Shown: piece after piece, positions 31,571 to 63,008 of the stretch
Position numbering within the stretch: position 1 is the first letter of the stretch
Layout: every line of letters starts with the position of its first letter
Virus record (IMG/VR): IMGVR_UViG_3300047560_001345
Strand: one strand, 5' to 3'
Length of the DNA: 64,000 nucleotides
Source: a virus
The notes under the pieces: model-generated
What the model was told of the DNA's origin: nothing
The model's input: the letters and a program-made list of their open reading frames with translations, nothing else
Databases searched by the model: none
Position numbers and translations under genes: made by a program

Positions 31571-31601
31571 GGCCCCGGTATCTCCTCCCGGGGCCTTTTT
31601 T
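31571..31601 (+). terminator. Rho-independent terminator at the convergence point of the plus and minus blocks
   Basis: GGCCCCGG-9 nt-CCGGGGCC followed by TTTTTT. Confidence 0.7.
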
Positions 31602-34600: not shown

Positions 34601-37600
34601 TTGTGCGCAGTGCGGCGCAACCATGACATGAACTGTTTAACGACCGGCAAATTCTTTGCGTGCTCGACCAGATAACCCAGAGCTTCTTCATGAATATGGT
34701 CTGGATGTGTGCCTTCCGGTACCCGGGCATACGCATCCTTGACGGCCTGCACCCCACGATCACGCAGCGTCTGGACCTGCTTCAGAATGTTTTGGAATTC
34801 AGGATCGGTCTTGCCCAGCTTCTTTGCATGAACAGCAACCTCATGGCGTACTAAACCGCGGAGGTTATGGCGGGTGTCGATATTGTCAGCGATCAGCACA
34901 GTGCGCCCGGTCTTGGGGTCATGGAACCCGCGGACATCTGGGCCGACACCTTCTTGTTCACGAGTAGACAGCACTACTTCTGGCGCGTCTTCACCAAAGG
35001 TTTCCTTAACTTTCTGCCCCAGCGACTCAACAGTATGTGCCTGCTCAGGTGCTTCGCCCTTGGTATACAGATGCACATCAGGATCAGGTTCCGCCCCTAG
35101 AGTCTTGGCGGTTTCAGCATCAATCTCTTCCTGCGTGACTTTCTTATGTTCAACCGGGCCCAGCTTTTCAACGAGATCGTCGAAGTAACCCTTGGTATCA
35201 GCACCTTCTATGTGGGCCGCTTTCCAAAGACCCTGTGCCTCACGAGGCATATCTCTGAATGCCGGATCAGTCGGACTGCGCAGGTCTTCCCATGCCTCGA
35301 CGTGAGGTGCCATAGGGCCAGTCGGGCGTTCGGATACTTTAGGCGCTACAGGTTCTTCTGCTACAGGTGCAGCAGGTTCTACAGCCTTTTCAGCCGTTGG
35401 CTCAATAGTCTTGGCCGCCTCAACCACCGGGGGTTCCGGCGCTTTCGGAGGCTCTATTTCTGCCGATGCAGCTTTCTCTCTAACAACCTTTGCAATTGCA
35501 GACTCTTGTGCATGCAAAGGAGAGAATTTACCCTTAGAAGTCAGCTTGCTAACTGCCGTACCCTTCACCATGTAGACAGAGCCGTTATGGTCGACAAGCG
35601 TGCCTTCCGGGGTCTTAACAGCACTTGGCGGCTCGGCAGCTTTCGGTGCTTCTACAGGAGGGGGCTCAACCGCTTTCGGAGGTTCAACTACCTTAGGCGG
35701 TTCAACGGGCGCAGGCGCTTCTACAGGCTTAGCCTGCTGCATTTCACCAACACGGGCGATCAGAGCATCTACTTTTTCTTCAGGGACTTGGACTTTTTCA
35801 CCGCTGACTTCAGGAGCTTTGACCCCTTGTCCGCTTGGTTCCACTCCTTGGCCACTGACTGCTTGATCCCTACCTTCTTCGCGAATGATGGGTTGTGGGC
35901 CGCGGCCGCCATCAACCGGGCCTGCTTCGGGGATTTGCTGGGCATTCTTCACCTCATCTAGGTATTGGCCAAACTCAATGACTTTCGTCGGATTAATGTT
36001 CTGAATGTTCTTGGTGACCAGCTCATCGATCGCTGCATGATCTTCGAGGTTGTTCGGGTCCAGCTTCTCCAGCTTCTTGGCAATCGGCTGTGAAGGTCTC
36101 AACCCAAGCATTTCTACCGGCCATGGCGCAGCCGCTGCTTCTACTGGCGGAGCAGGCGGTTCAACAATAGGTTCGGGTATAATGGCCGCAGCTTCGGGTG
36201 TAACGGGCTCTACCGGAACTTGAGCTTCGGGTGTAACGGGCGGAACAGTACGCGCAGCTTTAAGCGCAGCGTCTGCTTCCAGCACTTGCTGAGCCAGATC
36301 CTCAACCGTACCTTCTTCCTCAAGAACTTTTTCCTTCTTACCCTTTGCCTTTACGGCAGGCTCAGTCGGAACTTCAGGAGGTAAAGGCGCTTCGCCCGGG
36401 GGTACTTCAGCAGGAGGCGGAACCTCTGCACGTGGCTGCTTAGCGCGACCCATGGCGCCGCCGACCATACCACCGCCCATCACGTCACCCATGAAGGTGC
36501 CGAGGTATTCTTCAGCCGCTGCTTTATCAGCAGGTGATACAGGCTGGCCTGCGGCCAGACGCTCAAGAGCCACAGACGGGATATCCGCAGCAGTCGCACC
36601 AGCAGCACCTTTAGCGGCGCTTTCAAGGAACTTGCCCGCAGCAGGATTGAGGGCCCGCATACCCATGGTTTGGAATGCAGTCTCACCAAGAGCAGCTAGG
36701 AGATTAGTCGGTTCAGCAATTGAATAGGGTTTGCCCTGCTCATCAAAGCGTTGCGCAGAGCTGCCTACGGCAGAAAGACCCGCGGTACCCGCCATAGCGG
36801 CCACGCCAGCCGGCCCTGCCATAAGCGCAGGAGCTGCCGCCGGAAGACTGCCCAAAGCCGCGCCGCCATAATAGCCGAGCTTTGATAGCAGAGGATCAGT
36901 CGGAAGCGGTGCTTCATACTGCTTGGCCAGCTCAGCTTGGCGTTCCTTTGCAGACTTGATCCACTCTTGACCCATAGCTTGAGTCGGGCCGAACTCTTCA
37001 GCAATCTCACCTGCACCGCGCTGCAATAGAGAGGGAATGCTCTTGAATGCAGAGGCAGCACCCGCACCGAAGCCAGTCTTGGCCGCGTGCTCTTGGGTCA
37101 TCCACTCTTGGTCAGGGTGTTGCTTGGCCAGCTCGGCCAACGCCTGATTCACATCCGCGCTCTCCAATAGACGTAGCGTCTTATTGTTTGTCAGGGCATG
37201 CGGGATGATTCTTTCAAGATTTTTACCCTGCTCGCGAAATGCTTGAATAGCCTGCACTGGATCAGCCTCGGCCGGGAGGGTCAGCGTGCGCGGCTTCTTA
37301 GCATCATGATCGAAGACTTCAAAGCTCTGCATACCAGAAGCTGGAGGCCCTTGCGGCGCCTGTTCTGGCGCACCACGCAGCATGGTCTGAGCCTGCGCAA
37401 TGCGATTCTCGTAATTGGCAAAGCGTTCGTCCGGGCGTTCATAGGACGCACCAAAAGCGCGGGTTGCTTCTGCAACATCCTTAGCCGCCAGCAACTGCTT
37501 CAAAGCCTTGCTTTCAGGGCCCTGCAGTTCATGCCACATGTAATCGAGCTGGACGTTAGGATCACTTGCGTGGCGACCCATGGCTTCAGCAAATGGGATC

Positions 37601-37953
37601 AGACCGACATAGCCCTTACCACCGTGAAGACGTTCACGATTCCACTGACCATAGCCCAGAGAATAGGGATCATGCGCAGTGCGGCCGCCGCCTTCAGCAC
37701 GAGAGTGCCCGCCAGACTCCTGAGCAATATTGCCGACAATAGCTGCCGCCTGATGCGGAGCTAATCCTTTGTCGAGGAAGTAATTGAAGGCATGGCGGAG
37801 AGCGGCAACATTACCACCGCGGGCTGGCGCCTTCGGCGCAGCCTCTTGTCGGGGTAGGTATTGCTCTAATTCAGATACGCCACCGGTATTGGTGGGTGGC
37901 TCGATTGCGTATTGGTCGCCAAAGTCAAGCGGGTTGAATTCGCCTCGAGCCAT
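31600..37953 (-). CDS. 2117-aa polyvalent internal/ejection protein: N-terminal lytic transglycosylase (SLT) domain, Pro-rich repeats, HExxH zincin-like module
   Basis: SLT motifs GNIAQESGG...SLGYGQWN; PVEPV/PPKxVEPP repeats; RGLVRHEVAVHAKKLG (HEVAVH). The size and position are T7 gp16-like. Confidence 0.55.
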   Translation of the reverse strand: MARGEFNPLDFGDQYAIEPPTNTGGVSELEQYLPRQEAAPKAPARGGNVAALRHAFNYFLDKGLAPHQAAAIVGNIAQESGGHSRAEGGGRTAHDPYSLGYGQWNRERLHGGKGYVGLIPFAEAMGRHASDPNVQLDYMWHELQGPESKALKQLLAAKDVAEATRAFGASYERPDERFANYENRIAQAQTMLRGAPEQAPQGPPASGMQSFEVFDHDAKKPRTLTLPAEADPVQAIQAFREQGKNLERIIPHALTNNKTLRLLESADVNQALAELAKQHPDQEWMTQEHAAKTGFGAGAASAFKSIPSLLQRGAGEIAEEFGPTQAMGQEWIKSAKERQAELAKQYEAPLPTDPLLSKLGYYGGAALGSLPAAAPALMAGPAGVAAMAGTAGLSAVGSSAQRFDEQGKPYSIAEPTNLLAALGETAFQTMGMRALNPAAGKFLESAAKGAAGATAADIPSVALERLAAGQPVSPADKAAAEEYLGTFMGDVMGGGMVGGAMGRAKQPRAEVPPPAEVPPGEAPLPPEVPTEPAVKAKGKKEKVLEEEGTVEDLAQQVLEADAALKAARTVPPVTPEAQVPVEPVTPEAAAIIPEPIVEPPAPPVEAAAAPWPVEMLGLRPSQPIAKKLEKLDPNNLEDHAAIDELVTKNIQNINPTKVIEFGQYLDEVKNAQQIPEAGPVDGGRGPQPIIREEGRDQAVSGQGVEPSGQGVKAPEVSGEKVQVPEEKVDALIARVGEMQQAKPVEAPAPVEPPKVVEPPKAVEPPPVEAPKAAEPPSAVKTPEGTLVDHNGSVYMVKGTAVSKLTSKGKFSPLHAQESAIAKVVREKAASAEIEPPKAPEPPVVEAAKTIEPTAEKAVEPAAPVAEEPVAPKVSERPTGPMAPHVEAWEDLRSPTDPAFRDMPREAQGLWKAAHIEGADTKGYFDDLVEKLGPVEHKKVTQEEIDAETAKTLGAEPDPDVHLYTKGEAPEQAHTVESLGQKVKETFGEDAPEVVLSTREQEGVGPDVRGFHDPKTGRTVLIADNIDTRHNLRGLVRHEVAVHAKKLGKTDPEFQNILKQVQTLRDRGVQAVKDAYARVPEGTHPDHIHEEALGYLVEHAKNLPVVKQFMSWLRRTAHKLTGSAKWLREDDFGPMADAILKQGEKVKTAARAEGAEPLYSRRHAAEDVEQEVKTIQYDNWFDKYYTRARAALVNARSPIEYVLRELPLYSRNGNQIRSTAKMAQSTRDIQIINHALESGYLYLDKYGLVATRNDDAINPMKIKESFLAMGKEAQDKFAKAINTLAQNGHNLRAEEHRQLLEDNRRELAAVESEFYSRQDVLDKQKQEIADIKALPDKDIDVDRLEQLEGDHKALKAEQKAARDVIKARKALIHNVETRYKGVKHTKDGKVFDVSDEAVAEARAFLNSSPEVKEMAQNVRQLYKQNAKLLRDTGVISDKTYQSFIADKYDYAPLYKSIEDLNDDLEGRGDYFFVGGGQKRVGTPKKLRGGRGAEDMDRVNFLQNMFRHQAKVGAWAIHNNSKRATLADLAGMGFAKRTAAGRIPKDTAHLVAVMEDGKRRYYRVEDDGLFDAYQIINNAPRSKLGKITRAVTKELSQWMLIDPAYWYRQMWREPVMSAFMSGAGAKSFFAPFKAMGALTELATGKGTARQAYQELKGRGISGSHDYLSDERLIQLGKANIDPSTLKEKAAFYYDNAKKLGQKVQENIDAASKVTVMREYEQQLLKQGMSPEKAREGAIQRVGDMLNFANRGTAASAQYFNSTIPFFNSWAQGMDALIRHATGYGFDRNSSEGKAVMKTFWGHAAAMAAMATAYSAFMSDNKDYQNLSAENRARNWYVPLPGTNNLMKIPAAFETTVFKAVPEAIVTASLGKDPRDAKDMMVGTLWRDLMPPGSELPGVPYLVRPLLESAVGYKLSLRPGETRPIGDQSLRPELRERGKSAAADFFSDVTGGAVSPATLRYLATGYTPSIAKVGELAAKGIAAGVTSAFGQPDGRQQIRDIVDLARDITGAISNPDMVDRSRAYEFAAEQALNAHSARYAQRHGFEGVADKFREEGRYAKAAQNLKSVLSTLQMQEDRIKNSKDYKSAEAAEKDLQEVIARRREITKSLEDLEKRASEEE

Positions 37954-53212: not shown

Positions 53213-53635
53213 TCAGTTAATGATGACCACCGCTGTGGTGCTCGTGTTTGGAGGGAAAGCGACCGTTACAGGTTCTAAACCATCCCAAGTGTAGGTTCCG
53301 CCGAAATTAAGAACCGCTACGGCCTTGTTTCCTTTGGATGAATTGTATACCAAGCCAGCCGCGGCTGAAATGATAGCGCCGGGCCATACAGCATTTTCCC
53401 AACTAGCATAGGCGACGGTGCCTGATTGGGTCACGCCTAAATTAGCCAGAACCGTTCCGCCTGCGGTATATCCCGTACCTGATGTCTCTCCGGCGGCTGT
53501 ATAAACCGCCGTTGCTGAACTTAGATTGGCGTTGCTCGTGTAGAGCGCCATGTAGAAAACATCATTATCAAGGTCGTGAACACCTTGCAAAATCTCTTTT
53601 TTGAAGCTAGTTACTAGCGCCTGTGAGATAGCCAT
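53213..53635 (-). CDS. Structural protein
   Basis: Position and composition. Confidence 0.35.
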   Translation of the reverse strand: MAISQALVTSFKKEILQGVHDLDNDVFYMALYTSNANLSSATAVYTAAGETSGTGYTAGGTVLANLGVTQSGTVAYASWENAVWPGAIISAAAGLVYNSSKGNKAVAVLNFGGTYTWDGLEPVTVAFPPNTSTTAVVIIN

Positions 53636-54327
53636 TAGACCACCTTATCCCTGACTTGCACAGTTCTGTAAGCATCTTGACGATCCTTACCATCACCAAG
53701 CTGTTTGAGCGGGATCATGGCTTCTTGGAACTTTGCTTGATACGACTGCAGCACATCCGCTTCGCCTTTGAGGAAAAGGTAGGCTTCCGTAAGGGCACCG
53801 TATAGCAACACGTTCGGGAAGTTCGTACTCAACCAAGTCGATCCAGCAGTCACAATAGACTGCGGATAGGCGAAGTAATGTAGCTCGATGTCGTAGTTCA
53901 CATCCGGGGTAGGCCCAAGGATGTAGGTGTTGTTGTCGAACAAAGCATAGTACTGAGGTACGCCAGTAACCGCCGGATAAGGAAAAAACTCACGGATATA
54001 ATTCACGTCCTTATTCAACAAATACCGATAGTCGTTAGGCACTAACGGCTCATCTACATTCATCACCGCGACAGAGAACGTCGCCAAAAAATCAGATGGG
54101 AGCGTCAGATAGGGAAAGTTGGCCGTAGCCGACCCCGTGACATTTTTACGAAACGCGGGGAGCTGGACCGTGTTGTTAACGAGCCGTTCAGTATCCTGCA
54201 CAAACGTCGGAATGTTGTCGACGAACGTCTGCTCATTCACTTCCGTGAATGCCTGAATAGCGTTGACCAGCCCCGCGTATGTCGTAATGTCGTAAGCAGT
54301 CATGCTTATGCCATCGGTCCTCGGCAC
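53635..54327 (-). CDS. Structural protein
   Basis: Position. Confidence 0.35.
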   Translation of the reverse strand: MPRTDGISMTAYDITTYAGLVNAIQAFTEVNEQTFVDNIPTFVQDTERLVNNTVQLPAFRKNVTGSATANFPYLTLPSDFLATFSVAVMNVDEPLVPNDYRYLLNKDVNYIREFFPYPAVTGVPQYYALFDNNTYILGPTPDVNYDIELHYFAYPQSIVTAGSTWLSTNFPNVLLYGALTEAYLFLKGEADVLQSYQAKFQEAMIPLKQLGDGKDRQDAYRTVQVRDKVV

Positions 54328-54530
54328 TTGGTGCCTTTAGTCTGCGCACCAGTACCCCGCATGGTGATCTCACCGTGACGGTTCATCGGAGGGCGGTTAC
54401 CCTTGCTATAGCCGCCGACTGACATATCCAGCTTTTCGATCGCCTTGCCGCCGGGTTCGACGTTCGTGTGGATCTCGGTACCCTGCTTATAGTAAGCAGA
54501 AGCCGGCTTATTCTCTTTTGCTCTAGCCAT
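54306..54530 (-). CDS. Small basic Gly/Lys-rich protein (family member A)
   Basis: MARAKENKPASAYYKQG... Confidence 0.35.
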   Translation of the reverse strand: MARAKENKPASAYYKQGTEIHTNVEPGGKAIEKLDMSVGGYSKGNRPPMNRHGEITMRGTGAQTKGTKCRGPMA

Positions 54531-54531
54531 G

Positions 54532-54741
54532 TTATTTGCTCCGGGTAGGCTTCTTCTGGTTCATTGCGCGAGCCAGATTGCGACCGTACTTCTTCATCTC
54601 GAGAGAGGTTACACCACCCTTCTTGAGACCTTTAAGATCGGTCTTCTTACCACCGTGAAGCTGCTTATCGTGCATGCCGATAGCCTTCTTCACCATCTTT
54701 TTGTCTTCTTTAATGTCTTCGTGCTTCATTTGGCACCTCAA
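54532..54741 (-). CDS. Small Lys-rich basic protein (family member B)
   Basis: ...HGGKKTDLKGLKKGGVTSLEMKKYG... Confidence 0.35.
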   Translation of the reverse strand: MRCQMKHEDIKEDKKMVKKAIGMHDKQLHGGKKTDLKGLKKGGVTSLEMKKYGRNLARAMNQKKPTRSK

Positions 54742-55130
54742 AAATCAACAGGGCCCATGACGGGCGGGACGGGACGGAAGATAGGTACAACCGAAGCATA
54801 CCCAGTTACATTTACGTTATTTAGCTCAGTATACGCTATGAGAGTCGCAACTGGATTAAATGCGAAGTCAGAACAGCTTGCATTCCTGTTTGTATCAGGA
54901 CGTGGGTTACGGAGCGCCTGAGGGTCATTCGCAGCCTTCTGGCCGCCCAAAATACCCCACCAGTATGCTTCATTGTCCCCATTCCGATAGTCTTGGCACT
55001 CTTTACAGACTTTGATGTTCTGCTGTTTGCCCAAGATATAGACGTACGTAAAGGTCCGCAGCGGGCCTCGAAACCCACATCGATCGCAGAACCCAAACGC
55101 TCGTCTATTACTAGCAAACCGAGTAGCCAT
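54738..55130 (-). CDS. Zinc-ribbon protein
   Basis: CDRCGF...CKEC. Confidence 0.35.
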   Translation of the reverse strand: MATRFASNRRAFGFCDRCGFRGPLRTFTYVYILGKQQNIKVCKECQDYRNGDNEAYWWGILGGQKAANDPQALRNPRPDTNRNASCSDFAFNPVATLIAYTELNNVNVTGYASVVPIFRPVPPVMGPVDF

Positions 55131-55828
55131 TACCAGCCACCTCCTATCCGTTGGCTTTCTGGAGGTAAGTAGTTCCGCTTAGAAATATTCACAACCGCTG
55201 GGATTACTTGAATGTTCCATGGTACATGTAGCCCGCTGACCTCTTGCCCTTTAAGCGGCACAATGTGATCTAACTGCCACGGCACCTGCGTTGCTTCAGA
55301 TCTAAGTTTAGCTAGCTCGTGTGCTTCTTTAAAGAACCATCGGTAGTCAACATCGTCACTTCTTACAGCTCTATTTTTTCTAAACGCCCTGCGCTCACTA
55401 ACGTACGCTTGTACAAGAGCTTTATTGCTTTTACGCCATTCTACACAACGAAGCTTGTTTTTTTCTTTGTGTTTAGCATAAGACTTTCTTGCCTTGGCTC
55501 GATACTTTTCTGGGTTGTTTGTGCGATCTTTAGCCTCTTGTGCACGTACTTTATCTGGGTTGTTCTTTTTCCATTCTGCTTTGCGCGCCCGTTCTTTGGT
55601 TACAAACTCGGGGTTTAGTTTGTTCTGTGCATACCGAGCTTTCTCGTATGCCAATCGCTTTTCTATGTTCTCAACGTACTTTTTATTTGCGCGTTCTCGG
55701 CTGCATATCACACATGATCCGCCTACATAACGCTCCGCTGTATGCCCTTTAGGGCAAGGCTTACCGTTGAAGTACGTCTTCAATCCTAAGCTTTTAGCTT
55801 CTGCGTTAGTTAAAACTTTATCTGCCAC
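55130..55828 (-). CDS. Zn-finger + HNH endonuclease (His-Me finger)
   Basis: N-terminal YFNGKPCPKGHTAERYVGGSCVIC; C-terminal QLDHIVPLKGQEVSGLHVPWNIQVI. Paralogue of 61384..61980. Confidence 0.7.
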   Translation of the reverse strand: MADKVLTNAEAKSLGLKTYFNGKPCPKGHTAERYVGGSCVICSRERANKKYVENIEKRLAYEKARYAQNKLNPEFVTKERARKAEWKKNNPDKVRAQEAKDRTNNPEKYRAKARKSYAKHKEKNKLRCVEWRKSNKALVQAYVSERRAFRKNRAVRSDDVDYRWFFKEAHELAKLRSEATQVPWQLDHIVPLKGQEVSGLHVPWNIQVIPAVVNISKRNYLPPESQRIGGGW

Positions 55829-56516
55829 TGATATATCCCGCCATAGGGACCATCCTTATAGGTGCTTTCTCACGATCTTCGTCAGCCGCCAGTTGCCATG
55901 CTTCATCATACATCTGTTTGAGCATCGGAATCCGATCGTAGGACTCAGGGTTCTTTATCGCCATGTGGTAAGACAGCCCAGCGATGATTGCAGGTATAAA
56001 CCTGAACGGCATGTCCAATGTATTAGAGCCGGCCTGTCCAGCGTCCTGAATTCGGCGCAGATACCAATAATGGAAAAAATACCCAGACTGATTTGGAGTC
56101 GGCCAGATATTGATTTGCGGGATCGGCGCCAAGCGATCGATCCACACCTGCACAGGGCGTCCCTGCGTCAGCTTGTTCGGAATTGCTGCATAGGTCGGAA
56201 GCGCGATGCGCGGAATGACCAGATCAACCTGATTGGCTTGGCTGCCCGGATACTGCCGGATCACCTGCTCTACGATGTCGACGCAATCTTCAGGGAGGTT
56301 GTAAGTGCCCGTGCCCTGAGTCAGAGTGATCTCAGCTTCCTCAATGGTCCAGAGGTTAATCCCTCGGTTGGCCCATTCCTGAAATAGGATATTGAGGCTG
56401 CGCCGCGCTGTCCGCCCCTGATAACCCGTACGGATCTCGAAGCCTGCGCGCTCGCAGGCCTCTTCAATGATCTCGGTGACATCAGGTGTCCAGTTAGCAG
56501 TGCCTGAAGTGGTCAT
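55818..56516 (-). CDS. Tail tubular protein A/adaptor candidate (T7 gp11-like)
   Basis: TARRSLNILFQEWANRGINLWTIEEAEITL resembles T7 gp11 [27 protein letters not shown]. Recalled from memory. Confidence 0.35.
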   Translation of the reverse strand: MTTSGTANWTPDVTEIIEEACERAGFEIRTGYQGRTARRSLNILFQEWANRGINLWTIEEAEITLTQGTGTYNLPEDCVDIVEQVIRQYPGSQANQVDLVIPRIALPTYAAIPNKLTQGRPVQVWIDRLAPIPQINIWPTPNQSGYFFHYWYLRRIQDAGQAGSNTLDMPFRFIPAIIAGLSYHMAIKNPESYDRIPMLKQMYDEAWQLAADEDREKAPIRMVPMAGYISGR

Positions 56517-57517
56517 TACGATACCTGATTAACGGTTACGATGACGGCAGGGGCTGATGGGTACGCCGGGCTTGCGCTTGGAGAGTAAGTTACAACAGAT
56601 GTATGCCCCAACGTAGTCAACCATTTTAAAGTCAGCTTGTTTAAGGTAGTCAGCGTCAAAAACAAATTCACTGTCATAATGTATGCGCCGGGATTTGATG
56701 AGCTCGCGCGAGCTGGAACTGAAGCCCAACTTGCTGAAGACGGCACATCTGTCCCATCCAGAACATACCAAACACCCGCCAAATCCTGCGCATTTTCTGT
56801 GTTCAAAAACTGAACGCTGTACTGAATATTGTACGTACCTGCTACGGCTACTGAGATTTCGCGCGTCGTCGTGTTGAGCGTAACCCCATTGCTAATGTCG
56901 CTGGTGTTGATCTGCAGGAGTGTTGATGTGTTAAGCGGAGTCGTTTGCGCCCCATTTACATAAGTTCCTGAAGTGTGTGATACGTTGCTAGAACCATTGA
57001 CACCACGAGTGCACCCAGTGAACGAAGTTGCCGTAATCCCTGTATAGGTGATAAGTTCAACGCCGATAATAATCGCGCCGGTAGCCGAAAAACCTGTTGT
57101 GGAAACCACAGGGATCGTAGTAACCGTACCGTTAATCGTACTCGTCAGTGTCGTTGAATAATCAAAATGGAACGCGCCGTACTGGGTGTTGATATCTGAA
57201 GGGCTAAGAACTTTCCAGATCGGAGCTGCGGAAGCAGAGCCTGTACCCGTTTGTGTCAGGAACTTCTGGGTCGTAGTAGTGTTGCCGGAGAGTTTGGACA
57301 GCGTGTTCGTAGCGGACGCGTAGAGCGTGTCGCCCAACGTGTAGGAAGTGACATTCGTACCACCCTGAGTCGTAGTGACCGGATGAACATTCAGAGTCTG
57401 CGCGACAAAATTGGTAACTGTCGTCTGAACATTAGCGCCAGATTGAACCAATGGAACAATTTCCGTACCGTTTAAGGTAGCGGCATTGGTCATTGCTGAG
57501 ATTTTAGTGTCGGCCAT
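56516..57517 (-). CDS. Tail spike/fibre-like structural protein
   Basis: Thr/Ser/Asn/Gly-rich 333 aa. Confidence 0.4.
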   Translation of the reverse strand: MADTKISAMTNAATLNGTEIVPLVQSGANVQTTVTNFVAQTLNVHPVTTTQGGTNVTSYTLGDTLYASATNTLSKLSGNTTTTQKFLTQTGTGSASAAPIWKVLSPSDINTQYGAFHFDYSTTLTSTINGTVTTIPVVSTTGFSATGAIIIGVELITYTGITATSFTGCTRGVNGSSNVSHTSGTYVNGAQTTPLNTSTLLQINTSDISNGVTLNTTTREISVAVAGTYNIQYSVQFLNTENAQDLAGVWYVLDGTDVPSSASWASVPARASSSNPGAYIMTVNLFLTLTTLNKLTLKWLTTLGHTSVVTYSPSASPAYPSAPAVIVTVNQVS

Positions 57518-57520
57518 TGG

Positions 57521-57748
57521 TTATGACTCCAAATAGATTTTGCTGCCATCCTCCTGCAGCACGTACCCTGAGTTTTCCATCAGAATAAAATAATTCACTA
57601 CCGGGATAGGCGAGGCGTAAAGGTCAACAACCCCATGATCCCCTACATCATCCCCAAAACTGTCGACATTGTTCGCAACCACACTGATCGCAGTGCCTCG
57701 CGATGTATTCGCAAGATTGGCAACTCCAGTGTAGCCAACGTAAGCCAT
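57521..57748 (-). CDS. Small structural protein
   Basis: Track ORF. Confidence 0.3.
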   Translation of the reverse strand: MAYVGYTGVANLANTSRGTAISVVANNVDSFGDDVGDHGVVDLYASPIPVVNYFILMENSGYVLQEDGSKIYLES

Positions 57749-58038
57749 TAGTTAGGGCCTGCCTGAATAACCGTCAGCGTAGCCGTACCGCCGCCAGAAT
57801 TCACCGTGAGGCGGATCTGAAGGACCGGAAACGCATAATTACCATCCTGCGCCGTAGTCTTAGACGCGATCGTCGGATGATCGTACCAATTCGTACCATC
57901 AAAGGTATGCTGAACCGTGTAATTCACGGTTCCTGAAACCGCAACACCAAAGCCGACATTAAACGGTGAGATGTAGGAAGAGACTACGTACCCATTGGTA
58001 GAGCCCGTGCCGGTTTGTGAGAGAGTAACTGGACGCAT
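57748..58038 (-). CDS. Small structural protein
   Basis: Track ORF. Confidence 0.3.
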   Translation of the reverse strand: MRPVTLSQTGTGSTNGYVVSSYISPFNVGFGVAVSGTVNYTVQHTFDGTNWYDHPTIASKTTAQDGNYAFPVLQIRLTVNSGGGTATLTVIQAGPN

Positions 58039-58046
58039 GATCTACC

Positions 58047-58322
58047 TCAGCAATTCCAAGCCCGCAGGCTTTTGTTAATACGACTGTTTGGGTCATTCGC
58101 TGTCTTGCTTGAAGTCAGCTTTTTCTTCATCCCCGACATCCGGGCGCAGAATGATTTGCGTCGTCCTGTGTCTTCCTTAGTCTTGGGTTTTGGCGCCGGA
58201 GGCTTCAGGTTCATCCCCTGCTTCTTGGCGGAGGCGCGCCCCTTAGCGTTCAGACCGCCTTTTTCAGATTGGCCCTCTTTACGCTGCCACGCTGGTGTTC
58301 TAGCCATTATTATGCTCCACAA
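58047..58322 (-). CDS. Small basic Lys/Pro-rich protein (family member C)
   Basis: MARTPAWQRKEGQSEKGGLNAKGRASAKKQG... Confidence 0.35.
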   Translation of the reverse strand: MWSIIMARTPAWQRKEGQSEKGGLNAKGRASAKKQGMNLKPPAPKPKTKEDTGRRKSFCARMSGMKKKLTSSKTANDPNSRINKSLRAWNC

Positions 58323-58851
58323 CGGCCTTACATAAGTTCATAAAATCAGAAACCGACAATTCGTGTTTTGCCACATTGACCATGCGACAGACTAATTGCA
58401 CATTACCTACTTCGTAACCTAAATCAGAGTCAATCCGATCAAGACTACAGTTAGTGTGCACGCGGCCTTTTCCAAGGTCCATAGTCATAGGCCACCCTGT
58501 AACCGCGCAGCAGCCTTTTTGCGCAAACCACAAGAGCTCCAAGGCGTCCAAAGATATGACTTCTGCTCCCTTTTTACGCCCTATGGCTTTGCTGCGAAGA
58601 TATGCTAGATAGTTTCTAGCGGTCTTTGTCCGCTTAAAATTTGTAAATTGAAGCCGTTCGGCACCCCAAGTACGCTCGTGGTATGACGACTGCTTTACCG
58701 AAATGCAGGTTTTGCACCATGAATTATACTTAGGCTCCCCCGAGACTTTTCGGCCCGTAGTGTAAAAGTCAGAAATATGCTTAGCCTCGCCACAATGGGT
58801 GCAGGCTTTGACTTGCTTGTGCTCATCAACCCAAACTAGCGGCTTAGCCAT
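58300..58851 (-). CDS. HNH endonuclease with N-terminal Zn finger
   Basis: CTHCGEAK...CKTC; HNH core GKGRVHTNCSLDRIDSDLGYEVGNVQLVCRMVNVAKHE. Confidence 0.7.
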   Translation of the reverse strand: MAKPLVWVDEHKQVKACTHCGEAKHISDFYTTGRKVSGEPKYNSWCKTCISVKQSSYHERTWGAERLQFTNFKRTKTARNYLAYLRSKAIGRKKGAEVISLDALELLWFAQKGCCAVTGWPMTMDLGKGRVHTNCSLDRIDSDLGYEVGNVQLVCRMVNVAKHELSVSDFMNLCKAVVEHNNG

Positions 58852-59006
58852 TACTTCTTCCTCGCTGCACGCAGATTATCGACGAGATTCGGGTAAGGGC
58901 GTCCGGCCTTCTTAGCCGCTGCCTTAGCTGCGGTTTTCTTAGCTGAACTCAGCTTCTTAGGCTTTCCGAGACCTTTTGGCCTTGGTTTGTCCCATACTTC
59001 TTTCAT
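58851..59006 (-). CDS. 51-aa Lys/Ala-rich basic protein (family member D; below track cutoff)
   Basis: MKEVWDKPRPKGLGKPKKLSSAKKTAAKAAAKKAGRPYPNLVDNLRAARKK. ATGA overlap with the upstream stop; TAATG overlap with the HNH start. Confidence 0.3.
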   Translation of the reverse strand: MKEVWDKPRPKGLGKPKKLSSAKKTAAKAAAKKAGRPYPNLVDNLRAARKK

Positions 59007-59467
59007 CGCTGCTGCGGCCTCTGTACAACCTGAGATGAAGGGTTACCTTGAATCTGGAGGCCCTGCGGCTGCTGAAACTGTGAAAAGCTCAAAGGCTTGT
59101 TTCCTTGCTGCTGTGGAAGACCAGAAGCTATTCCAGAAGGAGGCGCTCCCAATGGGGTCTGCATCGGTGCCGGCTGGCCGCCTACACCGCCATCACTGCC
59201 GCTGCCATCAAAACCCATATTGGCCGGAGCGTAGTCCGCGCCTGAATCAGGCCCACCATTGTACTGTGTCGACATAAGCTGCTGCGGCTGGTTCGGCTGT
59301 CCTTGCCCTTGATACTGCATGAAGCCCTGAGGGGCTGATGAATTCATCATACCCCCCGGTTGGCCTTGCGTACTGGCACCCTGCAATCCCTGCATTGTGC
59401 TCGGGATATTCGGAACGCCTGAAGCTCCTGCAGCCATTATTTGATTCCCTCGTACATAAAAGTCCAC
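59003..59467 (-). CDS. Gln/Gly/Pro-rich low-complexity protein
   Basis: QGQPGGMMNSSAPQGFMQYQGQGQPNQPQQ... Confidence 0.35.
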   Translation of the reverse strand: MDFYVRGNQIMAAGASGVPNIPSTMQGLQGASTQGQPGGMMNSSAPQGFMQYQGQGQPNQPQQLMSTQYNGGPDSGADYAPANMGFDGSGSDGGVGGQPAPMQTPLGAPPSGIASGLPQQQGNKPLSFSQFQQPQGLQIQGNPSSQVVQRPQQR

Positions 59468-60099
59468 CCTTTATGTTTATAGCCTAATTTGATAGCGCGA
59501 CATACCTTCTCGGTGTGCCCCCTAATGTATTTTGCTGCTTCTGTGAGCGTATCAAATCTGTGTGTGCCATGCTCAGGATGCGATCCGATTACCGCTCTAG
59601 CTTTTCCATTAGCTGCGCCACATCGTTTTCCTAATTGCGCTTTAAATGCCTCCGGTAGCGGACGCGCTTTAAAGATTGCACTTAATTTAGCGCGAGTTTC
59701 GTCGCTGACCACTCTGCCCGACATACGAGCTGCCTGTGCTTGCCTGAACTCTTCTGAGCGCTTTTGGCCCTTATTTTTAGCTGCGGTCCGTACATAAGCA
59801 TCGGGAGAGTTAGGGCATCCGGCCTTACCTTCACCGCCATCAGTCATATTGACCAGAGCGGCGCCCATAGCTCTAAAGCACTTTATTAATCCTTTTTCAA
59901 GCTCAAACGCAACGCTTTCAGATGAGCACTCCAGTATACCCACGCCGATATTGTCTGCGCCATATTTAACTACAGTGCGCTCATGCACGATGTTTCTACG
60001 CCCTTTTCTAAGGCTTTTGGCCCTATTTAGCGTACCTTTCCCCACGTAGAACACGCTGGAGTCTGGTTTACAATGTACGTAAGCGCACTGTCCGCTCAT
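59437..60099 (-). CDS. GIY-YIG homing endonuclease
   Basis: AYVHCKPDSSVFYVGKGT...R...E core; C-terminal repeated basic DNA-binding motifs (SDETRAKLSAIFKARP / PEAFKAQLGKR). Confidence 0.7.
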   Translation of the reverse strand: MSGQCAYVHCKPDSSVFYVGKGTLNRAKSLRKGRRNIVHERTVVKYGADNIGVGILECSSESVAFELEKGLIKCFRAMGAALVNMTDGGEGKAGCPNSPDAYVRTAAKNKGQKRSEEFRQAQAARMSGRVVSDETRAKLSAIFKARPLPEAFKAQLGKRCGAANGKARAVIGSHPEHGTHRFDTLTEAAKYIRGHTEKVCRAIKLGYKHKGWTFMYEGIK

Positions 60100-60377
60100 C
60101 GGATTTTGCCGCGAGTGCGGCCTTTCTGGGCGATACCGTCGATCGATCCACCCTTTGCATAACCTTTACACATGCCGCCTTTCTTCATGCCCATGCCGCC
60201 CATGGCCGGACCCATCGGACCCATACCATCCACAGCGCCTGCCGGAGCCTTTGCCTTGATTTTCATAGAAGACTTGGCGGGTTTGGGCGCCATCGCCTTA
60301 CGGGGATCTTTCTTAGCCATATCATTACCTCTAGCCTTTTCTTGAATGGGGGCAATCCCCCGCGATGGGCGTGTCAT
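60096..60377 (-). CDS. Small basic Gly/Lys/Met-rich protein (family member E)
   Basis: ...MGGMGMKKGGMCKGYAKGGSIDG... ATGA-coupled to the GIY-YIG gene. Confidence 0.35.
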   Translation of the reverse strand: MTRPSRGIAPIQEKARGNDMAKKDPRKAMAPKPAKSSMKIKAKAPAGAVDGMGPMGPAMGGMGMKKGGMCKGYAKGGSIDGIAQKGRTRGKIR

Positions 60378-60676
60378 TTGTCTACCTTACTGTCCAGCTT
60401 GTCCATTATCCGATTAAACATGCCTCTAATTTCAGCAATATCAATCCGGTAATCTTCCTTGCGGACGTAATGCTCATGGATCGTCTGGTTCGTTTCCTTC
60501 ATATCCTTCTGCAATTCCTTAATTGCATCCCAGATAATCTTTACGAACCAACCGAGGATGGCGCCAATTAGCGCCATCACACCGTCGAGTATGTTTTGGA
60601 ACTCCATGTCCTGCATCCTTCCCTTATTACGGGGTCGGAGTTGCAGATCCATTTGAGTTCTTCTGGACGTAGACAA
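60374..60676 (-). CDS. Single-TM protein with a charged coiled C-terminus (holin/spanin-like?)
   Basis: TM ILDGVMALIGAILGWFVKIIW. Confidence 0.3.
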   Translation of the reverse strand: MSTSRRTQMDLQLRPRNKGRMQDMEFQNILDGVMALIGAILGWFVKIIWDAIKELQKDMKETNQTIHEHYVRKEDYRIDIAEIRGMFNRIMDKLDSKVDK

Positions 60677-61204: not shown

Positions 61205-61400
61205 CGCCTTCATTTTTGAGGCGTATTCCACCTCCGAGGGCACCGATGATGGCGGCGATTCCGGCTCCGATCTCAAGGGGAGCAGCGCCCACCACAATAG
61301 CTGAGCCAACAAGAGCCACACCAAGAAACCCAATAATCCTAATAGCACAGAAAGTTTCATTGTCTCGCTCCGTCAGGGCTGTTTTAACCAGTTTGTTCAT
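61188..61400 (-). CDS. 70-aa membrane protein
   Basis: Gly/Ala-rich TM IIGFLGVALVGSAIVVGAAPLEIGAGIAAIIGALGGGI. Confidence 0.3.
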   Translation of the reverse strand: MNKLVKTALTERDNETFCAIRIIGFLGVALVGSAIVVGAAPLEIGAGIAAIIGALGGGIRLKNEGVDTAK

Positions 61401-61980
61401 TTCGTATCCGTTTGTTTGACTTCTTTAGGTTCTCTTCTTTCAGCAGAATCTGCAAGTTCCATGGCACATTAAGCCCGCATACGTCTTCACCCATTATGGG
61501 CTCTATATGGTCAACCTCAAACTTTCTACCTGTTTCTTTGATGAGACGCTGGGCCTCAAGATAAAGCTCCCGCACTTCTTTTTTATGTTCTGCGGTCAGC
61601 CATTTTGGTGTGGCGTGCTTATACCGTCTGCGCCTAGCGTTCGTTATTGCGCGTTTCTTTTCTGGGTACTTTTCTTCCCAAACCTTGGTGTACTTACGTT
61701 TTGCTTCGGTGGGCCGCGCCATAGCCTTAGCAATCACTACGTCTTTGTTTTGCTCATAATACTTGCGCTTGTTGTCTTTCCCGCGGTCTGACTTGTTGTA
61801 GTCAGCAAAGTAGTCTTTGCGGTTCGCATAGCTTGCTTGATGCTCCAACTTACGACACTCGACGCAGGAGCCTTTAGTCTCCCGTAGCGCAATATGGCCG
61901 TGCTTACATGGTTTGCCTGTGAAGTAGTGTTTGGCGCCTTGTGCTTTGGCGTCGGCCCTATTAGTAGGAATGCTGTTCAT
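61384..61980 (-). CDS. Zn-finger + HNH endonuclease (His-Me finger)
   Basis: YFTGKPCKHGHIALRETKGSCVEC; EVDHIEPIMGEDVCGLNVPWNLQIL. Confidence 0.7.
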   Translation of the reverse strand: MNSIPTNRADAKAQGAKHYFTGKPCKHGHIALRETKGSCVECRKLEHQASYANRKDYFADYNKSDRGKDNKRKYYEQNKDVVIAKAMARPTEAKRKYTKVWEEKYPEKKRAITNARRRRYKHATPKWLTAEHKKEVRELYLEAQRLIKETGRKFEVDHIEPIMGEDVCGLNVPWNLQILLKEENLKKSNKRIRNEQTG

Positions 61981-62096: not shown

Positions 62097-63008
62097 TCAA
62101 GTACCCTGCGATCCGAAGATGGCCAAGTAATCGGACCACCCAAAGCTGTACCTCTCACGGGCCTTATACCTAGCGTTACCCGTGTCAAAATCGGCGTCCA
62201 TTGATGTAGACAGCGGGGTACGTACAAAGTGCTTCAGGCCGTTCGGAACATCGGTGGTCAGGAACCAAGCGTTGGTGTCGGTCAACCAGTGGTTGACAGT
62301 CCAGCCGCCCGGGATTGAACCGTTGTTCTTCAGAGCGTTGATGTCGTTGTCGGTGGTGCCAACGCGGAGCTCAGTTTCGAGGATGCGGGTCGCCACGAAC
62401 TGCAGAGCAGACGGGATGATCAGCTTCTTCGGCTTAGCTGCGATGAGCAGGCCACGTTCATCGGTCCACAGAGAGATCTGAATAACCGCATTTTCAAGTG
62501 AGGTTTCGTTCAGATCGGCTGCGATAGCCGGGATGTTGGAGATGGTTGAACCGTAGGTCAACGGGTGGTCATTCGCGAACAGAGACTTACCGTCACCACC
62601 TTTGTAGTTCGAGTTGAAGCCGTTGTTCAGAATGTTGGCGCCCTTGACTTCCTTGGTGTAAGCCATCGCCCGAGCCAGTGCCTTGGTGTAACGTGCAGAC
62701 AGTGAGTCGTACAGGTTATCTTCGATCGCTTCCTCAGTGAGGGAGAAACCGAGGGCAATGGTTTCGTGGGTGTATCGGGTAGACCACGCTTCCTGAGCGG
62801 TGTCATACGCGATTGCACTACCTTCCTGTTTGACAGGAGCTGCACCGAAACCGGAGAGCTTCTGTTCTTCTTCAAAGGAACGCTCGGAACTTTCGGTCTC
62901 GAAAATTTCCTTGTATTCCTCACCATAACGCTCGTATTCCAGACCGAACAAACCGTTCAGGCCGGGGAGCAGCTCTTTAAGTAATTGAGCGCGTGAAATA
63001 GCAGCCAT
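62097..63008 (-). CDS. Major capsid protein candidate (303 aa)
   Basis: Strong SD AAGGGAG; followed by a terminator; size and position typical of an HK97-fold MCP. No motif-level proof. Confidence 0.4.
   Translation of the reverse strand: MAAISRAQLLKELLPGLNGLFGLEYERYGEEYKEIFETESSERSFEEEQKLSGFGAAPVKQEGSAIAYDTAQEAWSTRYTHETIALGFSLTEEAIEDNLYDSLSARYTKALARAMAYTKEVKGANILNNGFNSNYKGGDGKSLFANDHPLTYGSTISNIPAIAADLNETSLENAVIQISLWTDERGLLIAAKPKKLIIPSALQFVATRILETELRVGTTDNDINALKNNGSIPGGWTVNHWLTDTNAWFLTTDVPNGLKHFVRTPLSTSMDADFDTGNARYKARERYSFGWSDYLAIFGSQGT

Follow-up and report, generated by a model that had tools for sequence, protein, structure and literature searches.

Five small basic ORFs in the 64,000-nt window analyzed here (the whole stretch of DNA under study, IMG/VR record IMGVR_UViG_3300047560_001345) are conserved, selected, late-operon genes of a phage virion module. 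Judged from sequence, they represent at least three unrelated families: DUF6321 (p91), phrog_34011 (p51) and a loose set comprising p69, p74 and p93. The four homing endonuclease genes (HEGs) scattered through the region have invaded tight junctions of this conserved operon independently and sporadically. By analogy, we tentatively suggest that the five are small late virion-module proteins working like gp7.3 and gp6.7 of phage T7.

Genome setting of the small basic genes

By its sequence, the source phage is an uncultured podophage of the HTVC023P/Pag-Yong1-like type (Pelagibacter phage HTVC023P, Planktothrix phage Pag-Yong1). Its major capsid protein is 68% identical to that of Pag-Yong1 and 60% identical to that of HTVC023P, and the presence of this gene fixes the context as a virion module (Table 1). 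All on one strand, the five small genes of this late operon are located between the capsid gene and a pair of SU10-type adaptor genes, and gaps or overlaps do not exceed 8 nt. The second adaptor-like protein probably starts at the ATG at 54303, which yields a 222-aa product matching a 222-aa gene call. A conserved zinc-ribbon protein of 130 aa is encoded in 78 of 82 related loci and in Pag-Yong1, and HTVC023P has it at the same position. It is not a homing endonuclease, and it has no endonuclease match in Pfam or PHROG.

A conserved 58-aa basic gene, the sixth of this kind, is nested out of frame within a 2117-aa ORF (31600–37953). Two PHROGs annotated 'virion structural protein' have its module as their N-terminus, as do tail-family proteins. 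Counting against the T7-like model, small basic genes are also found beside membrane or lysis genes: TM100 here, the holin gene in Pag-Yong1, and gp48/gp49 in HTVC023P. Candidate homologues of the five are the 55-, 81-, 83- and 54-aa proteins and the 308-aa tail protein of Pag-Yong1, and gp43 and gp50-53 of HTVC023P.

Table 1. Coordinates of the small basic genes and their neighbors in the window
Feature	Coordinates	Strand	Length (aa)	Assignment or remark
Sixth small Lys-rich basic gene	35769..35945	-	58	phrog_16759
Second SU10_adaptor-like protein	53635..54327	-		Pfam E=3e-25
p74	54306..54530	-	74	small uncatalogued family
p69	54532..54729	-	65 (true length)	ATG start; uncatalogued family
Zinc-ribbon (CxxC...CxxC) protein	54738..55130	-	130	between two adaptor-like genes
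HNH endonuclease, free-standing	55130..55828	-	232	phrog_1035, E=2e-19; between adaptor and zinc-ribbon gene
Head-tail adaptor, SU10_adaptor PF24175	55818..56516	-		Pfam E=4e-14
p91	58047..58307	-	86 (true length)	DUF6321 PF19846; ATG start
HNH/EndoVII-type endonuclease, free-standing	58300..58851	-	183	phrog_1035, E=4e-25; between p51 and p91
p51	58851..59006	-	51	phrog_34011, E=2e-18
GIY-YIG homing endonuclease, free-standing	59437..60099	-	220	phrog_314 'homing endonuclease', E=7e-19; NUMOD3 motif
p93	60096..60377	-	93	ORF; no Pfam or PHROG match
TM100 (transmembrane helix + coiled coil)	60374..60676	-	100	phrog_462, E=4e-13
HNH endonuclease, free-standing	61384..61980	-	198	phrog_26577 and phrog_1035; immediately downstream of major capsid gene
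Major capsid protein	62097..63008	-		phrog_371

The five ORFs are genes under purifying selection

All five ORFs picked out in the first-pass annotation are present on the minus strand where it had placed them, but two of its starts lay too far upstream, and p91 and p69 are accordingly shorter. Genes called independently on two other assemblies encode proteins of 93, 51, 86, 65 and 74 aa, covering all five. Hence the 51-aa ORF, real but described earlier as unannotated, is called elsewhere; an 86-aa JGI protein (P0001) is 100% identical to p91. The basic, K/G-rich composition was confirmed, with K at 11–25%, G at 6–18% and a net charge of +7 to +18. The pI, computed for four of the five and for the nested ORF, is 10.3–11.2, and a charge–hydropathy plot puts all five on the disordered side of the boundary. 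Among the 578 ORFs of ≥35 aa in the window, four of the five count as Lys-rich basic small ORFs, together with the nested ORF and eight others.

Each of the five genes is under purifying selection (ω 0.02–0.35; dS saturated). Values are about 0.05 for p91, about 0.1 for p69, 0.2–0.3 for p74 and 0.09–0.35 for p93. The most constrained is p51 (ω 0.02–0.06), with 90–96% amino-acid identity in relatives; p51 and p91 are held more tightly than the capsid protein (ω 0.02–0.06 versus 0.08–0.11). By tblastn over the 82 related loci, p91 was found in 56, p69 in 44, p93 in 22, and p51 and p74 in 17 each, while iterated profile searches of these loci detected each small gene in 17–72. Homologues in the large databases number more than 8,000 for p91, at least 6,687 for the p93-type tail and 367 for p69. 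We therefore reject the idea that the five are spurious ORFs, open by chance where composition is biased. All are short, and Pfam gives no match for four and PHROG none for three, but selection and independent gene calls on all five, with homologues in the hundreds to thousands, leave that idea next to no probability.

Several families linked by short modules

The five had been proposed to form one paralogous family, a view that the comparisons contradict. No pairwise BLASTP alignment, composition-corrected, was better than E=0.86, and in profile–profile comparison (hhalign) the probability was ≤0.3% for eight of the ten pairs. The exceptions were p69 with p93 (7.6%) and p69 with p74 (23–44%, a score inflated by hybrid sequences common to both alignments). 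The KGG motif is indeed invariant within the p69, p91 and p93 families; it does not unite the five.

Of these proteins, p91 is the best catalogued. It is a full-length member of PF19846 (75.8 bits; cut-off 28.5), a family equivalent to phrog_4689/727/3477, and its homologues occur in 510 phage records. The predicted fold is a small four-helix domain with two invariant Cys (AF2 mean pLDDT 84), and the model had no fold match in the PDB. A full-text search by the family name DUF6321 retrieved no paper. The domain recurs at 45–67% identity among T4-like myoviruses, T7-like podoviruses, pelagiphages and Ma-LMM01-type phages. In the T7-like phage P-SCSP1u it lies between the capsid gene and gp11, and elsewhere it is fused within varied multi-module proteins of 56–1143 aa. 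One such fusion, the 517-aa gp029 of cyanophage S-SCSM1, has DUF6321 at its C-terminus and is annotated 'virion protein' in its record. The S-SCSM1 paper identified 45 virion proteins via mass spectrometry and states that 13 proteins of unknown function were detected. The homologous fusion Syn9 gp114 carries no structural label in its record.

The Ala/Lys-rich p51 includes the stretch ..AKKTAAKAAAKKAGRPYPNLVDNLRAARKK; it lacks a Pfam match and is 62% identical to a 55-aa protein of Pag-Yong1 (UMO75999).

On sequence evidence, p69, p74 and p93 are uncatalogued families joined only via shuffled short modules. None of the three matched Pfam or PHROG, tblastn at the thresholds used found no match to their families in 50,697 deposited phage records, and a local search returned only a weak tail variant, in Pag-Yong1. 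The interchangeable modules comprise a helix at the N-terminus, 'D.KQDK..(A)VHKHE..H', a turn with (A/K)KGG, and invariant tails that alternate at the C-terminus; hybrid proteins fuse the p69 N-module to a p93-type or p74-type tail. In p69, an invariant LKKGG lies between the N-terminal helix module KHEDIKEDKKMVKKAIGMHDKQLH and a second helix, KKYGRNLARAMNQ (AF2 pLDDT 68; helices 3–25 and 42–58), and the family has 14 invariant columns. The p74 family comprises 26 representative clusters at E≤1e-3. Its conserved C-terminal core reads ..N.SVGG.SKGN.PP.N..GE..MRGTGA.TKGTKCRGPMA-COOH, and matches, where inspected, end within one residue of the C-terminus.

Sequence comparison makes p93 a member of a very large uncatalogued 'AKGG...GKT-tail' family. 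A conserved N-terminus (MTxPSRGI..IQ..ARG.DM) precedes a variable Gly/Pro/Met/Lys-rich middle and a C-terminal tail, KKGG..KGYAKGGSIDGIAQKGRTRGKIR. The invariant tail, YAKGGS..RADGxAxKGKTKGxxV, is carried by at least 6,687 environmental proteins (database matches, E≤0.01), among which no Pfam domain was found. It sits on N-terminal bodies of 33–482 aa that are otherwise not alignable; the HKHE module is also present in 61 of the 120 top matches. The tail string ends exactly 5 aa before the C-terminus in all 120 of these, and in 68 of 98 cases in the loci. Tail genes number one to three per locus, with four or more in some loci. In its behavior, the tail looks like a terminal docking peptide.

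Homing endonucleases are independent insertions

The first-pass annotation had each small gene abutting an HNH or GIY-YIG gene. This is true of p93, p51 and p91; p69 instead neighbors the zinc-ribbon gene, and p74 lies between p69 and the adaptor-like gene. Small basic genes thus occupy three of the eight HEG-neighbor slots, with 2.4 expected by chance.

At the adaptor/zinc-ribbon junction, the gap is ≤32 nt in 68 of 78 relatives, and the other ten have an insert of 0.5–0.8 kb. The three inserts examined encode an HNH (L014), a GIY-YIG (L008) and a LAGLIDADG (L056) enzyme. Downstream of the capsid gene, one relative has a GIY-YIG gene (L006) and three have an HNH gene (L052, L057, L062). The GIY-YIG gene of the window is inserted just downstream of p93 and has no close homologue at the same position in relatives. 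In seven relatives p51 and p91 are spaced by 2–14 nt, and the HNH gene that separates them here has an 85%-identical counterpart in one locus only (L024). Close HEG homologues (70–85% identity) were found in one locus each or none; the three HEGs flanking small genes have at most one apiece, in different loci. Junctions lacked an insert in 68 of 78 and 7 of 15 relatives, and HEG-free relatives keep all five small genes, with the flanking genes directly adjacent.

Two readings had been offered earlier. In one, HEGs were inserted between paralogous packaged DNA-binding proteins; the insertion part is borne out by the intact junctions of HEG-free relatives, and the paralogy part falls with the finding of at least three unrelated families. 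In the other, the small proteins were accessory DNA-binding partners co-mobilised with the HEGs, an idea encouraged by overlaps of 1–8 nt with a HEG in three of the five. That HEG-free relatives retain all five genes, and that the same junctions hold different HEG types, refutes this second reading. The small genes occur in 17–56 of 82 loci by tblastn, against at most one close homologue for each HEG; one junction holds HNH, GIY-YIG or LAGLIDADG depending on the relative, and adjacency is at chance level. We give co-mobilisation hardly any credence.

Possible roles in the virion

Evidence for virion association is indirect, consisting of module position in three phage lineages and the annotation of the S-SCSM1 DUF6321 fusion. 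Under the T7-like model, the small proteins would be produced along with the structural proteins and become part of the particle. Each would dock on a symmetric component through a short terminal peptide of high conservation; the portal barrel, the adaptor/nozzle junction and an internal core are candidates for that component. The basic disordered body could then contact DNA, and at infection the proteins might exit together with the DNA or ahead of it. Because they are encoded between two adaptor-like genes, p69 and p74 would be the strongest candidates for acting at the channel as gp7.3 does. Encoded between capsid and adaptor, p93, p51 and p91 are candidates for internal or ejected cargo.

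A bulk protamine- or histone-like role, with high-copy proteins neutralising genome charge and sequence mattering little beyond charge, appears less likely than a specific virion-associated one, and we regard it as quite improbable. Net charges of +7 to +18 in 51–93 aa, predicted disorder in all five, an H1-tail-like AKKxAAKAAAKKA run in p51 and location in a late operon would all suit such a role. Yet each family keeps precise non-charge motifs (ω down to 0.02), constraint is tighter on p51 and p91 than on the capsid protein, helices are predicted for p91 and p69, and no histone, HU or protamine family was matched in Pfam. Moreover, at about +15 each, thousands of copies would be needed for a genome of about 69 kb.

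DUF6321 is 60–67% identical between myoviruses and podoviruses whose particles differ greatly. This speaks against its docking to a single structural partner, and suits a role that needs no particular partner, for example DNA or host binding. The five might be late or injected effectors acting in the cell on the host or on phage DNA (nucleoid-, ribosome- or defence-directed), with no architectural role in the particle and a place in the virion module that reflects only timing or co-packaging. Movement of DUF6321 between phage types at 45–67% identity, and its varied fusions, more like transferable cargo than a fitted structural part, speak for this. However, the position in podoviruses is consistently between capsid and adaptor genes, the fixed-distance C-terminal tail on many bodies resembles a docking signal, and no enzymatic or known effector domain was detected. 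On balance, we consider effectors unlikely.

Cationic 'disruptin'-type lysis peptides offer another analogue, in which the small proteins would act on the envelope with adjacent membrane proteins. In nine of nine loci p93 follows the TM/coiled-coil gene at -1 to 2 nt and is always translationally coupled to it (here with a 4-nt overlap), and the TM/coiled-coil protein has weak Rz-like spanin and holin-like PHROG matches. In Pag-Yong1, homologues of p51 and p91 directly follow the annotated holin, and the M15 peptidase of HTVC023P is flanked by small basic genes. Nevertheless, bulky hydrophobic or Cys residues make up only 10–16%, no amphipathic hydrophobic face is evident, p69 and p74 lie between adaptor genes far from any membrane gene, and a virion-protein annotation exists for one DUF6321 fusion. 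A lysis function is very unlikely.

Comparison with known systems

The T7-like model that we favor draws on gp7.3 (99 aa) and gp6.7 (88 aa), likewise tiny Lys/Gly/Ala-rich proteins of a podovirus structural block. The gene 7.3 product has 16% K, 14% G and a net charge of +10, and its gene is directly followed by the HNH gene 7.7 and then the portal gene, recalling the small basic genes beside HEGs here. In a structure solved at about 3 Å, a C-terminal loop/peptide of gp7.3 is anchored at the nozzle–adaptor junction and a basic disordered N-terminal body surrounds the DNA end; gp6.7 is a core protein (PMC11784390). A variable basic body with an invariant terminal peptide would be the counterpart here. 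The five proteins have no detectable sequence or profile similarity to gp6.7 or gp7.3. T7 has two such genes, against five or six here, and the terminal tails here are common to several genes and shuffled between modules.

The T4 internal proteins IPI–III are packaged, basic and injected, and bear a short capsid-targeting sequence that is N-terminal and cleaved by the prohead protease. They resemble the present proteins as small basic proteins thought to travel with DNA and bearing a short terminal targeting peptide, but here the conserved peptide is C-terminal, with no homology and no sign of processing. Encapsulin cargo-loading peptides are C-terminal docking tags on HK97-fold shells; the likeness to the AKGG...GKT tail, a short conserved C-terminal tag on otherwise unrelated bodies, is conceptual, and the motif is unrelated in sequence. 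In T4-like cyanophages, DUF6321 forms the C-terminal domain of multi-module proteins of 443–856 aa, whereas p91 stands alone.

As for the HEGs, T4 seg/mob and T7 gene 7.7 are likewise HNH or GIY-YIG genes in intergenic junctions of highly conserved genes, with presence/absence polymorphism among close relatives and unrelated HEGs recurring at one junction. Beside such free-standing HEGs of phage late operons, the four within 7 kb here are nothing unusual.

Five small basic genes in a late operon

The virion module spans ~49 to 63.7 kb of the window, with every gene on the minus strand (see table). Its major capsid protein is 68% identical to those of Planktothrix phage Pag-Yong1 and Synechococcus phage MinM2, and 60% identical to that of Pelagibacter phage HTVC023P. 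A megablast search with the 7.6-kb region turned up no DNA-level relative among 50,697 phage records. A JGI contig of 68,984 bp encodes a DUF6321 protein identical (100%) to p91, and assemblies of two other sequencing runs yield this genotype again. The five small genes (p93, p51, p91, p69 and p74, named by length in amino acids as first read) belong to a translationally coupled late operon that runs from the capsid to the adaptor genes with overlaps or gaps of ≤8 nt. Between the two SU10-type (head-tail) adaptor paralogues lie three small genes, encoding a 130-aa zinc ribbon, p69 and p74, a layout repeated in Pag-Yong1 and HTVC023P. Pag-Yong1/MinM2 encodes homologues of p51 and p91, a 308-aa tail protein and basic proteins of 83 and 54 aa, and the corresponding candidates in HTVC023P are gp43 and gp47–53. 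Two other neighbors were noted. A transmembrane/coiled-coil protein is translationally coupled to p93, at –1 to 2 nt, in all nine loci having both, and a Gln/Gly/Pro/Met-rich low-complexity protein (144–154 aa), which has homologues in five related loci by tblastn and no family match, is encoded between the GIY-YIG gene and p51.

Coordinates of the features discussed (positions in the window, or in the related phage locus named)
Feature	Location	Strand	Remarks
Major capsid protein	62097-63008	(-)	
HNH/EndoVII-type homing endonuclease gene	61384-61980	(-)	free-standing
Transmembrane/coiled-coil protein	60374-60676	(-)	100 aa; phrog_462
p93	60096-60377	(-)	
GIY-YIG homing endonuclease gene	59437-60099	(-)	free-standing; NUMOD3 motif
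Low-complexity protein	59003-59467	(-)	
p51	58851-59006	(-)	
HNH/EndoVII-type homing endonuclease gene	58300-58851	(-)	free-standing
p91	58047-58307	(-)	86 aa
SU10-type adaptor	55818-56516	(-)	
HNH/EndoVII-type homing endonuclease gene	55130-55828	(-)	free-standing; adaptor/130-aa gene junction
p69	54532-54729	(-)	65 aa
p74	54306-54530	(-)	
SU10-type adaptor	53635-54327	(-)	
Large ORF	31600-37953	(-)	2117 aa
Nested Lys-rich basic ORF	35769-35945	(-)	58 aa; other frame inside large ORF
HTVC023P gp51, gp52	L002 18701-19353		
p93-family tail with Walker-A string	L074 3842-4162		
S-SCSM1 gp029	L083 3687-5240		
P-SCSP1u gene 17	L084 4201-4377		58 aa
Syn9 gp114	L085 3903-5234		

All five ORFs are present in the sequence, although p91 and p69 begin later than the first-pass annotation had them. 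The 51-aa ORF, described there as unannotated, is called by independent gene callers, as are the other four. In a scan of 578 ORFs of ≥35 aa, the Lys-rich basic small ORFs included four of the five and one nested ORF, besides eight other short hits. In a comparison with relatives that are saturated at synonymous sites, dN/dS was 0.02–0.06 for p51, ~0.05 for p91, ~0.1 for p69, 0.09–0.35 for p93 and 0.2–0.3 for p74, as against 0.08–0.11 for the capsid protein in the same comparison. The five ORFs are real genes.

The basic composition reported earlier was borne out, with net charges of +7 to +18 and pI values of 10.3–11.2 where computed. Bulky hydrophobic residues are scarce (10–16%), and a charge-hydropathy plot places all five proteins on its disordered side. 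Only the neighboring membrane proteins point to a role in lysis: the transmembrane/coiled-coil gene always precedes p93, and the Pag-Yong1 homologues come after a holin. The small proteins' want of hydrophobic character makes this reading weaker. Nor do we favor bulk, protamine-like condensation of DNA, given the tight, motif-specific conservation. For protamine, histone-like or HU-type families there was no Pfam match at E ≤ 1, and PDB sequence searches gave no match for p91 and only weak uL11 matches for p93. The uL11 N-terminal domain (p93 residues 29–74; Pfam 11.3 bits versus a gathering threshold of 32.9, PDB E = 0.007) was rejected: homologues of p93 do not conserve the residues that match, so the similarity is probably compositional. 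Structure prediction gave a confident small four-helix domain for p91 (pLDDT 84) and, for p69, two helices joined via a Gly/Lys-rich LKKGG linker (pLDDT 68), and these models argue against featureless polycations. The p91 model has no fold match in the PDB, where Foldseek returned no hit for the DUF6321 model below E = 5; in BFVD, every significant hit except one was to a protein with a DUF6321 domain.

The small genes do not form one family

The five had been proposed to be paralogues. Composition-corrected BLASTP among them gave no significant match (best E = 0.86). Profile-profile comparison with hhalign, using alignments from 82 related loci recovered through the adaptor protein, gave ≤0.3% probability for eight of ten pairs; the exceptions were p69–p93 (7.6%) and p69–p74 (23–44%), the latter inflated by hybrid sequences common to both. 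Judged by these comparisons, the five are not a single paralogous family. Two belong to families already catalogued as being of unknown function: p91 is a full-length DUF6321 protein (PF19846; 75.8 bits versus a gathering threshold of 28.5, profile positions 2–72 of 72), and p51 matches phrog_34011 (E = 2.2e-18, positions 5–52 of 55). No match to p69, p74 or p93 was found in Pfam or PHROGs. The spacing AAAK-5-YP-4-N in p51 recalls a 'YPSAYAN' module seen elsewhere; kinship had no HMM support, so we keep it as a resemblance only.

Homing endonucleases in tight junctions

Among the 82 loci, tblastn found p91 in 56, p69 in 44, p93 in 22, and p51 and p74 in 17 each. Iterated profile searches raised the counts to 72 for p74, 66 for p69 and 60 for p93, and left p91 and p51 unchanged. 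Close homologues (70–85% identity) of the homing endonuclease genes (HEGs) of the window were found in at most one locus each (L014, L024) or in none. The statement that each small gene abuts an HNH or GIY-YIG gene holds for p93, p51 and p91. It fails for p69, which adjoins the conserved zinc-ribbon gene (found in 78 of the 82 relatives), and for p74, which adjoins p69 and the second adaptor-like gene. Small basic genes fill three of eight HEG-neighbor slots, versus 2.4 expected by chance.

The junctions themselves are usually closed. Adaptor and 130-aa genes lie within 32 nt of each other in 68 of 78 loci, and the remaining ten carry a 0.5–0.8 kb insert. Three of these inserts were examined and encode HNH (L014), GIY-YIG (L008) and LAGLIDADG (L056) endonucleases; in the window the insert is HNH. 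This junction is a hot spot at which HEGs of three families have inserted independently. Similarly, in seven loci 2–14 nt separate p51 from p91, as is also the case in Pag-Yong1, and L024 alone has the same HNH gene between them. Downstream of the capsid gene, the insert is GIY-YIG in L006 and HNH in L052, L057, L062 and the window. These patterns show the HEGs to be recurrent, independent invaders of tight junctions between conserved genes. With no co-occurrence of small genes and HEGs across the relatives in this synteny check, they refute the proposal that the small genes are accessory partners co-mobilized with the endonucleases.

DUF6321 in other phage lineages

DUF6321 occurs in 510 phage records. 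The T7-like Prochlorococcus phage P-SCSP1u encodes it between the capsid gene and gp11, and T4-like cyanophages have it as the C-terminal domain of larger proteins, of 443–517 aa (Syn9 gp114, S-SCSM1 gp029). These fusions concatenate small basic or Cys-containing modules ('YPSAYA', DUF5872-like, 'CWxGY...YPNC' and DUF6321) that are separate tiny genes in podophages; HTVC023P, for example, has stand-alone small basic genes matching the 'YPSAYA' (gp51) and DUF5872-like (gp52) modules. Pfam recognizes only DUF6321 and sub-threshold DUF5872 in HTVC023P gp51–53, P-SCSP1u gp17 and the S-SCSM1 fusion. Fusion of the modules suggests that the small proteins act together. S-SCSM1 gp029 is annotated in its record as 'virion protein', and the paper behind that record identified 45 proteins of the virion by mass spectrometry, of which 13 have no known function. 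This annotation is indirect evidence for presence in the particle. The spread of DUF6321 over unrelated particle types makes an injected or late effector without an architectural role a serious rival for this family.

After DUF6321 in P-SCSP1u, gene 17 encodes a basic protein (GLYANIHAKRKR..., phrog_16028), and a module of this type is fused upstream of DUF6321 in PHROGs 11180 and 28131. The protein belongs to the same toolkit of small modules; we noticed no homologue of it in the window. A full-text literature search for 'DUF6321' found no paper, and the CRP-901/902 paper contains no virion proteomics. When genome contigs were searched, 79 of 80 DUF6321 matches (L170–L249) fell on MAG contigs, the other being an environmental assembly labeled as a strain. 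The MAG labels span unrelated phyla (Gemmatimonadota, Verrucomicrobiota, Nanopelagicaceae, archaea and others), and many of the contigs are phage-genome-sized. These are probably mis-binned phage contigs and give no clue to host. One match lies in a 1.05-Mb contig (L198).

A nested basic gene

The nested ORF found in the composition scan (26% K, pI 10.8) has an SD-like GAGGTGA upstream of its ATG. Its full length aligns with phrog_16759 (E = 6e-23), and it also matches two PHROGs annotated 'virion structural protein' at their N-termini. Nesting is kept in the seven closest relatives, within open frames of >2100 aa, and in two more within a 637-aa frame. The other homologues, about 70, are for the most part genes standing alone; the rest form the N-terminal domains of larger proteins, and some end in the AKGG tail. 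Between relatives, identity in the overlap is ~90% for the nested frame and ~50% for the large frame, whose flanks show 20–40%. This ORF is probably a real overprinted gene.

A C-terminal tail on many bodies

The C-terminus of p93 (...GYAKGGSIDGIAQKGRTRGKIR) carries a tail that we define as (Y/M)AKGG, then DG.A.(K/R)G(K/R)T(K/R)G..x, ending five residues past T; in p93, R replaces K at the GKT position. The p93-type form is (Y/M)AKGGS..(R)ADG(C/I)A.(K/R)GKT(K/R)G(K/R)x(V/I/C)-COOH. At least 6,687 database proteins share the tail at E ≤ 0.01, an uncatalogued family. The best 120 matches are 47–163 aa long, have no Pfam domain and are nearly all unnamed or 'hypothetical'; in 120 of 120, the string G-x4-G-(K/R/H)-T stops exactly five residues short of the C-terminus. 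In related loci, the tail sits on otherwise unalignable bodies of 33–482 aa, and some relatives have consecutive tail-bearing genes (e.g. four each in L050, L056 and L074). With p93, p69 and a canonical tail protein as queries, tblastn found no match in the 50,697 phage records at the thresholds used, to which the low-complexity filter may contribute.

The invariant tail of p93-family proteins, which are too small for NTPases, contains a literal Walker-A string, G-C-A-T-K-G-K-T (e.g. L074; database proteins P0121–P0240). A P-loop NTPase (GxxxxGK[ST], matched by DGCATKGKT) was considered and rejected, because the motif lies five residues from the C-terminus of 47–163-aa proteins with no NTPase domain.

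The link among p69, p74 and p93 is modular. In hybrid proteins, the p69 N-terminal module (D.KQDK.M...AVHKHE...H.GK..TKLAKGG) is followed by a p93-type or a p74-type tail, the latter being MRGTGAATKGTRARGPMG-COOH. The KGG motif on which the claim of kinship had drawn does therefore exist, and the p69, p91 and p93 families each keep it invariant, yet it marks a turn between shuffled modules and is no sign of common descent of the five. For the KGG stress-protein repeat (PF10685; YciG/GsiB), neither p93 nor p69 had a Pfam match at E ≤ 1; one JGI homologue in the p93-tail search is auto-named 'YciG'.

Proposed role and comparison with known systems

As they stand, the findings are mostly ordinary: conserved hypothetical small genes and selfish insertions. 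New at the level of sequence comparison are a very large family defined by its tail, evidence that modules have been shuffled, and a 'Rosetta-stone' fusion that leads to a virion protein of a cyanomyovirus. The analysis also dispels the tempting but mistaken idea that small basic genes and HEGs belong together, and documents late-operon junctions that three HEG families have hit repeatedly.

A variable basic body with an invariant terminal peptide at fixed distance, common to several genes per genome, is as expected for a shared docking partner. From gene position, the DUF6321 lineages, this architecture and a solved precedent in T7, we tentatively propose a mechanism like that of gp7.3 and gp6.7, and give it close to even weight. 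The terminal peptide of the small proteins would dock on a common structural partner, the docked proteins would contact DNA, and they would be released at ejection. If so, very abundant freshwater and marine podophages would have counterparts of the T7 small proteins that hold the DNA end and tie core to portal, and the shared tail would offer a simple handle: packaged or ejected proteins could be spotted by it in phage genomes from metagenomes, and foreign cargo could be loaded with it.

A broader reading, which we consider rather unlikely, is that the invariant tail (…AKGGS..RADGxAxKGKTKGxxV-COOH, or alternatively …MRGTGAxTKGTKxRGPMA-COOH) might be a general cargo-docking or loading signal. 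Abundant uncultured aquatic podophages would use it to place a changing set of small, basic proteins at the portal, in the core or inside the capsid, with new cargo arising as bodies are shuffled onto the tail, and DUF6321 and the nested 58-aa gene would be part of the same packaged toolkit. Encapsulin cargo-loading peptides would then have a counterpart in phages.

The T7 likeness lies in small basic proteins of a podovirus structural block, encoded beside portal or adaptor genes. The difference is that T7 gp6.7 (DUF5476) and gp7.3 have no sequence homology to the five (no significant match by phmmer --max or hhalign), so the small proteins may work like the T7 proteins and are not proposed as members of their families. 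In the ~3 Å cryo-EM structure of T7, six copies of gp7.3 are held by their C-terminal loops where nozzle and adaptor meet, their first 83 residues, which are basic, surround the DNA end, and gp6.7 is a core protein that ties portal, gp14 and gp15 together (PMC11784390). In the T7 genome, gene 7.3, which encodes a 99-aa Lys/Gly/Ala-rich protein, is followed directly by the HNH gene 7.7 and then by the portal gene. Small basic genes and free-standing HEGs in a podovirus structural block have a textbook counterpart in T7.
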